From Promethearchaeia archaeon (GTDB lineage: Archaea > Asgardarchaeota > Lokiarchaeia > Sigyniarchaeales > SOKP01), in assembly GCA_029856125.1 (NCBI GenBank), contig JAHQWJ010000147.1, forward strand, positions 12,509-76,508: a stretch of 64,000 nucleotides of DNA, written 5' to 3'. Positions within the stretch are counted from its first letter, which is position 1. Every line of letters begins with the position of its first letter. Both the position numbers and the translations under genes were made by a program. Positions 16,095 through 57,988 of the stretch are shown here, one piece after another. The notes under the pieces were generated by a model. The model saw nothing but the letters and a program-made list of their open reading frames with translations. It was not told where the DNA came from and made no database searches.

Positions 16095-16730
16095 ATGACA
16101 GAATTAAAAATAGGTGCTATCGCTAGTGGTTCGGGCTCTAATTTAGAAGCTATAATTAAAGCTTGTAAAACTGGTATATTGAAAAGTAAGGCAAGCGTAG
16201 AAATTCTTATATGCAACAAAGCGGGAGCATTTTGTATGGAGCGAGCAAAAAATCATAACATTCCCTATGAATTAATTGAGTCTAATAAGTATCTACATCT
16301 TCCAAGGGAAGAATATGACAAAAAAATGATAGAGGTGTTTCGAAAGTATAACTGCGAATTAATCGTTTTGGTAGGCTACATGAGATTAGTAAGCGGAGTG
16401 TTTATTGAAGCCTTTAATGGTAATGTTATGAATATTCATCCCGCTTTGTTACCTTCGTTTAAAGGGATGCACGCACATAGAGATGTGTTAGATTATGGGG
16501 TCAAAGTTTCCGGATGTACGGTTCATTTTGTTGATGATCAATCGGATCACGGCCCAATTATTATCCAAAAATGCGTTCCTGTTTATGATAATGACTCTGA
16601 AGATACTTTAGGAGCAAGAGTTTTAGAATGGGAGCATAGAATATTCCCTAAAGCGATCGAGCTATTTTGTAATAAGAAGCTGCATATAGAAGAAAGACTT
16701 GTTATCATAGATGGCGAATTTGAACTATAG
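16095..16730 (+). CDS. purN: Phosphoribosylglycinamide formyltransferase
   Basis: SGSGSNLEAI, GYMRL, NIHPALLPSF, GCTVHFV, DHGPII. Confidence 0.95.
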   Translation: MTELKIGAIASGSGSNLEAIIKACKTGILKSKASVEILICNKAGAFCMERAKNHNIPYELIESNKYLHLPREEYDKKMIEVFRKYNCELIVLVGYMRLVSGVFIEAFNGNVMNIHPALLPSFKGMHAHRDVLDYGVKVSGCTVHFVDDQSDHGPIIIQKCVPVYDNDSEDTLGARVLEWEHRIFPKAIELFCNKKLHIEERLVIIDGEFEL

Positions 16731-16748
16731 CCAAGCTACATTTATTAT

Positions 16749-16855
16749 GCGGGAAAATGAATGAATTCGGTGAAAGCTCTGACCCAACTGAAAGTATGGT
16801 GGATTCCATAACTTAATGAAGAAGATCTTGAGTAATGAGAATTTTCATTTCCCGC
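16749..16855 (+). ncRNA. Box C/D-like guide sRNA (predicted tRNA position-34 2'-O-methylation)
   Basis: Terminal stem GCGGGAAA/TTTCCCGC; C-like ATGAATGA; D' CTGA (16779); internal hairpin; C' ATGAAGA (16816); D ATGA (16835); both guides are complementary to tRNA-type anticodon loops. Confidence 0.7.
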
Positions 16856-16946: not shown

Positions 16947-19136
16947 ATGCCACGTCGGAAGGAGATTTCAGAAATTCTGAATATGATGGAAAAAACGCAG
17001 AATATTAGAAACATTGGATTTGTTGGACATATCGATCACGGAAAGACAACACTTTCTGATTCGCTTCTGAGTGAGGCGGGTTTATTATCACCCGATTTAG
17101 CTGGCGAGGCTCGTGCTTTAGATTATTTAGAGGAAGAACAAGCTCGTGGGATCACTATGAAATCTACCAATATTTCATTATACTACGAAAAATCACTAGA
17201 AGACCATGAGCCATTTCTAATAAACCTCGTCGATACGCCTGGACATTTGGATTTCAGTGGAAAGGTAACTCGCGCCCTAAGATTAATAGACGGGGTTGTG
17301 GTAGTTGTTGATGCTGTTGAAGAAATAATAACACAATCAGAGACTGTGATTAAACAAGCTTTACAGGAAGGTGTAAAACCAGTTCTGTATATTAATAAAG
17401 TAGATCGCCTTATCCGAGAGTTAAAGCTAACAGATGAACAAATAAGAAAAAAATATTCAAGAATTATTAAAGATTTCAATACGCTTATTAAAAGATACGC
17501 TGACAAACCCTTCAAAAAAGAGTGGCAAGTATCTCCGGCAGATGGAAACGTTGCTTTCGGTTCCGCACTTCACAAATGGGGTTTTACTTTGCAACTATTA
17601 GAAGATAACGATTTAAAATTTTCTGATATTAGAACTCGTTATCAGAAAGAAACTTATACCAAAGAGAGTTATGCTGATTTAGCAGTTTATTTTCCAATAC
17701 ATAACGCTATATTAGAAATGGTAGTTGACCATCTCCCCAATCCTAAAGAAGCGCAAGCTTACAGAATTAGAAAGATCTGGGAAGGCGATTTAGAATCGGA
17801 TATTGGAAAAGCGATGATAAATTGTGATCCCGAAGGACCCACAATTATTTGTTTAAGCAAGGTACAAGTAGATAAACACAGTTTGGTAGCGACGGGTAGA
17901 ATTTTTTCTGGAATGTGTTCGATGAAAGAAGACGTTTTTTTGGTAAGAGAAAACAGTTATGATACAATCCGAAGGACAGCTCTCTTTATGGGACAAAGAA
18001 GGGAACAAGTCGAACAAATTCCTGTTGGTAACATTGTAGCAGTTGAAGGATTGAAGCAATTACAGAGCGGTGAAACACTAATCGCCAAAGAGTTTGCCAG
18101 TTTAATGGTTCCGTTTGAAGATGTTAAATATGTATCTACTCCTGTAGTAACCGTTTCAATCGAGCCGGAGTATTTACGAGAACTGGATAAAATGAAGGAA
18201 CTAATTGAAAACTTATTAATAGAAGACCCAAACCTTAAATTTGAAATTAACGAGGAAAACGGTGAATTCTTGCTTTCGGGAGTTGGCCCCCTACATCTTG
18301 AAATCACAGCAAATGAAATAGAAAAACGAGGGATTAATGTTTCTATTTCAGAACCACGAGCTGTATTTAAAGAATCTTGTAAGTATGATTCTCCCCTTGT
18401 CACCGTAAAATCGCAAAACAACAAGAATTCTCTTCAACTTAAAATTGAAAGAATAAAGGATAAGACTTCAAGGTTTTTACAAACTCATGATTTAGCAACA
18501 ATTAAACCTAAAGCGAGATTGAAAGAACTATTTGAGGAACGCACAGAATTAACATTAGAGGAAATACACACCTTCTGGAGGTATTTTGACAATATTAATC
18601 TGCTCTTTTATAAAAAGGATGAAGAAATTGCCCTCACTTATAAAAAAATTATAGAAGAAATCGTTACTAAGATTCTTTCAAACGGGTTTTTGTGTGGCGA
18701 AAAAATTACGGGAATTAAAGTTAAAATTAAAGATTTAACCATCGCTGAACTTAACGAAGAAAACGCTTATACAGAATTATCCACATTGTTCTACGATGCC
18801 ATCAAAAAGGCTTTAAATCAAGCTGAACTAATCCTTCTTGAGCCTATTTATCACACAGTTATTCAATTACCCCCCGATTACGTAAAAAATGCCCTTTCTT
18901 TAGCTTCAAAGTATTCTGCTAAAATAAAGAATGTTAACCAAGAAAAGGATTACCAAGCTATTATTGATATGTTATTCCCAGTAAGAAATTCGATAAAGTT
19001 TGCTGAAGATATTCGCTCGTCTACTTCAGGAAAAGCATTCTGGCAGAATGAGTTTCACTCCTTCATGGAAGTTCCTGGTCAAGAAGCTAAAAAAATAATT
19101 AGCGATTTAAGATTTAGTAAAGGACTTTCATGGTAA
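16947..19136 (+). CDS. Elongation factor 2 paralog (aEF-2p-like GTPase)
   Basis: GHIDHGKT, RGIT, DTPGH, NKVD and EF-2 domain layout; the domain IV diphthamide HRG loop is absent. Confidence 0.85.
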   Translation: MPRRKEISEILNMMEKTQNIRNIGFVGHIDHGKTTLSDSLLSEAGLLSPDLAGEARALDYLEEEQARGITMKSTNISLYYEKSLEDHEPFLINLVDTPGHLDFSGKVTRALRLIDGVVVVVDAVEEIITQSETVIKQALQEGVKPVLYINKVDRLIRELKLTDEQIRKKYSRIIKDFNTLIKRYADKPFKKEWQVSPADGNVAFGSALHKWGFTLQLLEDNDLKFSDIRTRYQKETYTKESYADLAVYFPIHNAILEMVVDHLPNPKEAQAYRIRKIWEGDLESDIGKAMINCDPEGPTIICLSKVQVDKHSLVATGRIFSGMCSMKEDVFLVRENSYDTIRRTALFMGQRREQVEQIPVGNIVAVEGLKQLQSGETLIAKEFASLMVPFEDVKYVSTPVVTVSIEPEYLRELDKMKELIENLLIEDPNLKFEINEENGEFLLSGVGPLHLEITANEIEKRGINVSISEPRAVFKESCKYDSPLVTVKSQNNKNSLQLKIERIKDKTSRFLQTHDLATIKPKARLKELFEERTELTLEEIHTFWRYFDNINLLFYKKDEEIALTYKKIIEEIVTKILSNGFLCGEKITGIKVKIKDLTIAELNEENAYTELSTLFYDAIKKALNQAELILLEPIYHTVIQLPPDYVKNALSLASKYSAKIKNVNQEKDYQAIIDMLFPVRNSIKFAEDIRSSTSGKAFWQNEFHSFMEVPGQEAKKIISDLRFSKGLSW

Positions 19137-57868: not shown

Positions 57869-57988
57869 GGCGGGATTACCGAGTCTGGTCAAAGGTCTTT
57901 TGGTTTAGAAGGGTCAAGACCGATTAGAGGTGCTGGACTTAAGATCCAGTGGCAAAGGCCTTCGGGAGTTCGAATCTCCCTCCCGCCA
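57869..57988 (+). tRNA. tRNA-Leu(TAA) with 35-nt intron at position 21/22 (57893-57927)
   Basis: GGCGGGA/TCCCGCC acceptor, CTGGA-CTTAAGA-TCCAG anticodon arm, long variable arm, BHB motif in the D arm. Confidence 0.9.

Follow-up and report, generated by a model that had tools for sequence, protein, structure and literature searches.

A box C/D guide RNA of an Asgard archaeon proposed to dock on tRNA intron tags and to direct wobble methylation of three tRNAs

We analysed a window of 64,000 nucleotides (the whole stretch of DNA under study) from the genome of a Promethearchaeia archaeon, and suggest that an RNA encoded at 16749..16855 (+) acts as an sR47-like box C/D RNP whose two arms cooperate on tRNA precursors. 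Its D arm would act on C34 of tRNA-Leu(CAA), and its D′ arm would dock on tags in the introns of two other precursors, so that the same D arm methylates nucleotide 34 of tRNA-Met and tRNA-Leu(UAA); we consider this reading likely. One guide would then probably serve three tRNAs, and the tagged introns would gain a job. The boxes, both complementarities, the co-variation of guide and tag and the distribution of the tag are visible in the sequence itself. An earlier sequence-only reading of the locus had described a box C/D RNA whose D guide is directed at C34 of Leu(CAA), with a plausible link to tRNA-Leu(UAA), and this stands; the second guide it described, for U34 of tRNA-Glu, is not supported.

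Guide RNA gene and box layout

The gene, of 107 bases, is supported by BLAST, a covariance model and the same neighbours in relatives. It starts 19 nt past the stop codon of purN (formyltransferase, PF00551; 16095..16730, +) and ends 91 nt short of a gene for an EF-2 paralogue with Pfam EF-G domains (16947..19136, +). The two genes are neighbours of the guide system and functionally lie outside it. The EF-2 paralogue adjoins the guide RNA in nearly all Lokiarchaeal homologues; its domain IV is eroded, and in the Lokiarchaeal families f1 and f2 the sRNA lies directly upstream of it.

BLAST matches to the guide RNA were found in 31 of the 36 genomes of the same genus, and the covariance model recovered it between the same neighbours in 84/102 genomes of the family. 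A search with the D-guide pattern gave matches in 149 of 301 phylum genomes (45/70 genera), against about five matches for the reversed pattern used as a control; this pattern misses most f10 genomes, and its lack of matches in f19, f21, f32 and f6 is not equivalent to absence of the RNA there. The closed genome G050 has both a homologue and a tagged tRNA-Met. In two other genomes of the phylum, G268 and G308, the sRNA sequence is identical to that of the public Heimdallarchaeota records L292 and L271, respectively, in agreement with the phylum being Asgardarchaeota. In G337 (C69:89891-90003) the homologue begins right after the T arm of a tRNA gene, an arrangement that suggests a co-transcript. 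The source genome (G000, 3.7 Mb) encodes L7Ae, Nop5 and fibrillarin (PF01248, PF01798 and PF01269) as well as the splicing endonuclease. Short contigs from one metatranscriptome, which show neither ends nor strand, cover positions 16725-16849 at a depth of 2-4, and cover purN too. A search of Rfam with the RNA returned no family at the gathering score; the alignment to SNORD25 was weak (E 0.024) and put box C at 16770, while the homologue from G141 matched snoPyro_CD with an E value of 1.2e-4, below the cut-off. A search of a phage collection with the guide RNA gave no match.

Based on its box layout, the RNA is almost certainly of the box C/D class. With box C at 16770-76 and the second of two CUGA words as box D′, two motifs of k-turn geometry (tandem G-A pairs, a 3-nt bulge and flanking stems) are formed. 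The D′ guide measures 11 nt and the D guide 12 nt, within the archaeal range of 10-12 nt, and both lengths are fixed in nearly all homologues. The 5′ arm of the outer stem (16749..16764, +), which contains a 5-nt duplication in the source genome, pairs with 16845-16855. It is followed by the 5′ strand of stem I of the terminal k-turn (16765..16768, +), pairing with 16839-16842, and by the 3-nt bulge (16769-71). Box C (16770..16776, +) is degenerate (GUGAAAG); canonical AUGAUGA occupies its place in G113 and in many distant homologues. Then come the D′ guide with the core UCUGACCC (16777..16787, +), box D′ (16788..16791, +), a D′-C′ hairpin (16792..16814, +) of 12-52 nt among homologues, and box C′ (AUGAAGA; 16816..16822, +), which forms the second k-turn with D′. 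The D guide with the core GAUCUUGAGU (16823..16834, +), whose G16830 is the N+5 base opposite nucleotide 34, precedes box D (AUGA; 16835..16838, +). The long terminal stem and internal hairpin noticed in the sequence-only reading, which quoted its sequences correctly, are real and conserved (fold z -2.65).

The layout was supported by co-variation among 71 distinct homologues compared with column shuffles, a comparison in which kinship inflates the p values, though several pair types occur per position. Pairs C5-D2 and C6-D1 were kept in 58/71 and 41/71 homologues, respectively, each count beating all 5000 shuffles, and pair C′6-D′1 in 70/71. The first pairs of the two flanking stems were kept in 61/71 and 56/71, above the column shuffles; for the former, in stem I, the count of 61 compares with a shuffle mean of 39, and six pair types occur. 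The stem that flanks D′ covaries as well. The D′ guide core (16778-16785, including the first CUGA) was invariant in 68-70 of the 71 homologues of the order, and the D guide core in 71/71.

The terminal C/D motif is degenerate in Lokiarchaeales and has canonical boxes in distant homologues. In many relatives (L097-L132) compensating Watson–Crick pairs stand in for its second G-A pair, or for box D in its entirety (GCUA, GCGA), the changes in box D being met by changes in box C, and C′/D′ stays canonical. Two other ideas about the architecture were discarded. Processing of the sRNA ends through a bulge-helix-bulge is out, the 3′ bulge having 2 nt rather than 3 and no covariation, and a circularly permuted box order was needless after reassignment of the boxes.

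It had earlier been proposed that the D′ guide lay at 16766-16778 and box D′ at the first CUGA (16779-82). The former consists of box C and the bulge of the k-turn, and varies among homologues; the latter sits inside the invariant true guide. That 16766-16778 guides U34 of tRNA-Glu(UUC) is thus very improbable. The genome's own tRNA-Glu(UUC) does pair with the segment, with N+5 on U34, by 9 Watson–Crick pairs and one G-U, its loop running CCU and not the expected CCG. However, the 9-bp match occurs in 1/71 distinct homologues only, the N+5 base is unpaired or in a G-U in 37/71, and the segment changes together with box D in the way expected of box C; the 8-mer of this supposed guide, with a box-like word, has three further chance occurrences in the genome. 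The argument from two independent guides hitting position 34 falls with it, because the Glu guide is unsupported. Service of several wobble positions by one RNA probably holds by another route, in which D′ docks on the tag and the single D arm reads Leu CAA, Met CAU and Leu UAA.

Pairing of the two guides with tRNAs and intron tags

The usual criterion for a guide duplex is 9 bp. At least 9 contiguous Watson–Crick pairs with a Watson–Crick pair at N+5 were found for the D guide on tRNA-Leu(CAA) and for the D′ guide on the tRNA-Met intron, and for neither tRNA-Met nor tRNA-Leu(UAA) with the D guide. The source genome's tRNA-Leu(CAA) (C84:129968) has an intron between positions 32 and 33, and its positions 31-40 are identical in precursor and mature form. 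The complement predicted by the sequence-only reading is present there; the D guide pairs at 10/10 positions (10 Watson–Crick pairs and not 11), with N+5 on C34. It is very likely that the RNA guides Cm34 of this tRNA.

The window itself contains a predicted substrate, recognised from its sequence, a pre-tRNA-Leu(UAA) with a D-loop intron of about 35 nt (57869..57988, +), which ARAGORN misses because of that intron. The pairing over 10 positions that had been noted for this tRNA is present at its positions 31-40 (57937..57946, +) as 9 Watson–Crick pairs and a G-U at U34. On tRNA-Met the D guide forms five pairs around C34, then a 2-nt mismatch (U36, A37) and three further pairs, and its N+5 lands on Watson–Crick-paired C34. 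The last three pairs are restored by AUC at 38-40, kept by nearly all tagged Met genes; the untagged Met genes of G057, G058 and G060, from other orders, are without it. A search of the source genome for further guides flanked by boxes gave none for either Met or Leu(UAA), and a search for a perfect Met guide pattern in the 301 phylum genomes revealed no recurring guide, with scattered unrelated matches in 34/301.

Many tRNA introns of the source genome lie at non-canonical positions and are miscalled by ARAGORN. One tRNA with two introns (C37:5642-5791) reads as Ile(UAU), an anticodon rare in archaea. A CAU tRNA of G155 (C1:2569625-2569702) has in its intron a word resembling box C, GAUGAAGA, and after it a sequence similar to a Leu anticodon; this may be an intron-encoded guide.

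The complement of the D′ guide was first met in the anticodon intron of the source genome's pre-tRNA-Met(elongator) (C2:10216), where the duplex has 9 bp (-16.3 kcal/mol), and in three other genomes; it is also present in the D-loop intron of pre-tRNA-Leu(UAA). In the family, the tag GGGUCAGA was found in 51/51 introns of elongator tRNA-Met, and GGGUCA in all 39 D-loop introns of tRNA-Leu(UAA); outside the tag these introns vary. In the window, the putative docking tag GGGUCAAGA lies at 57911..57919 (+) and pairs by six contiguous bp, a bulged A and two bp. None of the 10 Leu(CAA) introns searched carried a tag. Among the 20 tRNA genes of the source genome recovered by a motif hunt, two carry it, exactly Met and Leu(UAA).

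The place of the tag differs. In the anticodon introns of Met it lies downstream of nucleotide 34, at a distance of 13-34 nt. It lies upstream of this nucleotide by about 30 nt in the D-loop introns of Leu(UAA) and Bathyarchaeal Met, and by 87 nt in G173. The N+5 position of the D′ arm falls on a Watson–Crick-paired base in 32/33 pairs, mostly the same G; the register is shifted to the first G in G041 and G268, and to a C or U in f22/f25.

A ribosomal or other stable RNA target for the D′ guide was also sought. In the source assembly, which has a 16S rRNA and no 23S or 5S match, no run exceeded 6 Watson–Crick bp; helix 51 of 23S rRNA gave a 9-position match with one G-U in the genus and was rejected, because in G042 the guide core is unchanged while the helix differs. 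Scans of 16S, 23S and 5S rRNA, SRP RNA and RNase P RNA showed no conserved site. A tag in the 5′ leader of intronless tRNA-Leu(UAA) was likewise dropped as weak. Four such f12 genes (L391, L405, L406 and L407) have in the 5′ flank a complement of about 14 nt to their own variable arm (-16 to -19.5 kcal/mol) and then GGGGUCA; they belong to four genomes of two genera, and both elements are absent from the four other f12 genera.

The D′ guides differ among families, and the tags follow. In f10, guides UCUAGCCC or UCUAACCC pair with tags AGGGCUAG or AGGGUUAG in 18/18 Met introns. The f12 guides (UGACCCC) match GGGGUCA in 51 of 52, the remaining intron giving a G-U. Perfect 11-bp duplexes of different sequence occur in G193 (f25) and G169 (f24), duplexes of 9-11 bp with Leu(UAA) introns in G141, G150, G163, G202 and G060, and a 9-bp tag in the D-loop intron of tRNA-Met from a Bathyarchaeon. 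In total, at least seven distinct guide-tag states were found across Asgard families and a Bathyarchaeon. The match is weak in f27 and f33 (5-7 bp), and Met of G060 has none.

In a permutation test with one genome per family, the guide-tag run within a genome averaged 8.5 bp for Met against 6.6 bp for permuted partners (p 2e-5, 12 families) and 8.1 against 6.5 bp for Leu(UAA) (p 2.4e-4, 11 families), with 5.2-5.3 bp in shuffled regions; since the genomes were picked for having both parts and the families share ancestry, the test shows within-genome matching and not the number of independent events. Based on these results, pairing of the D′ guide with the tag in trans is highly probable. The opposite view, that the tag is conserved for cis pairing with the tRNA's own anticodon arm and that its match to the sRNA is incidental, is hardly credible. 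The minimum-energy fold of the source genome's pre-tRNA-Met does join the tag to G30-A35, but tag changes follow the sRNA guide and not the invariant anticodon arm, the f10 and f25 tags are unable to form the cis helix, and the permutation test largely refutes it.

Proposed mechanism and its implications

Based on the above features, we infer RNP assembly, simultaneous binding of both arms and methylation, and suggest the following pathway. An RNP would form from the guide RNA, L7Ae, Nop5 and fibrillarin. The D arm would direct 2′-O-methylation of C34 in tRNA-Leu(CAA) through the perfect 10-bp duplex, for which no tag would be needed. The D′ arm would pair with the 8-11-nt tag that pre-tRNA-Met(elongator) and pre-tRNA-Leu(UAA) carry in an intron. 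Once one unspliced tRNA is held by both arms, the D arm could engage the imperfect anticodon loops, and nucleotide 34 would be methylated before splicing takes the tag away. For tRNA-Met, Cm34 formation by the RNA at 16749-16855 seems likely. Um34 in tRNA-Leu(UAA) is possible but rather doubtful; it is the weakest step, because a Watson–Crick pair at N+5 has been reported to be essential (PMC6009581).

Several findings speak against docking: the G-U at N+5 in Leu(UAA); the Met duplex of only five contiguous pairs, under the usual 9 bp; the degenerate box D (GCUA, GCGA) beside the catalytic guide in many relatives; and the short or missing tags of f27, f33 and G060 Met. The Watson–Crick-paired N+5 of D′ in 32/33 pairs also fits plain methylation of the intron. 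Two independent ordinary guides may be considered, D for Leu(CAA) C34 and D′ for a G within the introns of Met and Leu(UAA), for example to stabilise the precursor or the excised intron, with the D-guide near-matches as by-products of similar loops. D′/C′ is indeed the more canonical motif, and the D′ duplex has 8-11 Watson–Crick pairs, its N+5 position meeting the final G of the G run in most families. Yet the shift of the D′ N+5 base in four lineages fits a tether better than selected intron methylation, and this explanation accounts neither for the restriction of the tag to the two D-guide near-match tRNAs nor for the AUC at 38-40 that goes with it. We regard it as unlikely.

No more probable, in our opinion, is that the RNP binds tagged precursors by both arms as a chaperone or checkpoint of folding or splicing, leaving Met C34 and Leu(UAA) U34 unmethylated. 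The G-U and the two Met mismatches would suit such a role, as would the predicted fold of the source genome's pre-tRNA-Met, in which the tag mispairs with G30-A35 and D′ binding would undo this; conserved non-methylating guide pairings have also been proposed for archaeal rRNA (PMC6009581, PMC4644070). On the other hand, the tag may stand downstream of the anticodon, inside the D loop or near the 5′ end, and since its place relative to the splice sites varies so widely, a tether fits better than a splice signal. Moreover, the N+5 of the D guide lands on paired Met C34, a known methylation site (PMC2584109, PMC6601510), and the searches of the source genome and of the 301 phylum genomes produced no other Met guide.

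We regard it as nearly an even question whether tags are, more generally, transferable addresses in Asgard and Bathyarchaeal introns, such that the tag and not anticodon complementarity sets the substrates, mismatches and G-U pairs are tolerated, methylation is timed before splicing, and the orphan second guides of other archaea act alike. The persistence of archaeal tRNA introns is a long-standing question, and docking would give them a concrete job. It would likewise provide a role for the second, "orphan" guide of C/D RNAs that target tRNAs. One of its predictions is that a C/D RNP can depart from the pairing rules of the textbooks once its other arm tethers it. The guide-tag system spans Asgard, the archaeal phylum closest to eukaryotes, in which wobble 2′-O-methylation is split between Trm7/FTSJ1 and SNORD97.

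Comparison with known guide systems

C34 of both Leu(CAA) and Met is a known guide target (PMC7994747, PMC3413156, PMC2584109). The closest known RNA is Pyrococcus sR47, a box C/D guide for Cm34 of tRNA-Leu(CAA) (PMC3413156, PMC7994747), which has the same 31-40 target and the same N+5 on C34. The same 10-nt D guide was found in compact C/D RNAs of Thermococcales, Nitrosopumilales, Thermoplasmata, Micrarchaeota, Bathyarchaeia and Hadarchaeota; the guide is dictated by its target, so its identity with that of sR47 cannot tell homology from convergence. In contrast to sR47, the RNA described here is longer, with an outer stem, a D′-C′ hairpin and degenerate terminal boxes; its D′ guide differs from the Thermococcales core CUCGGCAG, and its D′ arm would address tags in the introns of two further tRNAs. 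For Pyrococcus, an sRNA of its own is described for each of the tRNAs Leu(CAA), Leu(UAA), Met and Trp (PMC7994747).

The sR47-like RNAs of other archaea (L221-L300) have lineage-conserved D′ guides of their own (CUAUCCCU in Nitrosopumilales, CGAACCYUU in Thermoplasmata and CUCGGCAG in Thermococcales), which look complementary to exon parts of tRNA-Leu, namely the 5′ end, T arm and D arm; one Thermoplasmatales Leu(CAG) has a T-arm site for its lineage's D′ guide. Among the Leu(UAA) genes recovered, neither the Nitrosopumilus introns nor Thermococcus showed a tag for their own D′ guides.

In the pre-tRNA-Trp intron (sR50), the intron itself is the guide RNA and is needed for wobble 2′-O-methylation. 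A tRNA intron would be required for this modification in our model too, but it would carry the landing tag alone, the guide being encoded elsewhere: the gene is intergenic, between purN and the EF-2 paralogue, and not within an intron. sR49 and Haloferax sR-tMet are described as guides for Cm34 in the precursor of tRNA-Met (PMC2584109; Joardar et al. 2011, cited in PMC4033218), and one arm of the haloarchaeal Met guide pairs across the exon-intron junction (PMC2584109). Our model shares with them an intron-containing pre-tRNA-Met as substrate, intron sequence in the pairing and a modification that must precede splicing. It differs in that the catalytic guide mismatches Met (full complementarity across anticodon and intron junction, as in sR49, is broken by the adjacent U36 and A37), and that a separate arm pairs wholly within the intron, 13-34 nt off or in another intron.

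In Pyrobaculum, where mature tRNAs only were searched, the second guide is an orphan in about 80% of the sRNAs that target tRNAs, and every guide for a wobble position has a single target (PMC6009581). Our literature search brought up no account of an intron tag, common to different tRNAs, on which a separate arm docks; Clouet d'Orval 2001, Nolivos 2005 and Joardar 2011 may contain a prior mention of D′-arm pairing. Extra base-pairing elements are known from yeast and human C/D snoRNAs and stimulate methylation in yeast (PMC3116282), and here, as there and in archaeal double-guide sRNAs (PMC6009581), a second pairing near the target would raise methylation or rescue a weak guide. Those pairings are made on mature rRNA sequence, whereas the one proposed here uses disposable intron sequence common to different tRNAs. 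Finally, human SNORD97/SCARNA97 directs Cm34 of elongator tRNA-Met (PMC6601510), the same target as proposed here; it does so with a single, fully complementary guide and without an intron tag, whereas the Asgard RNA would reach it through two arms.
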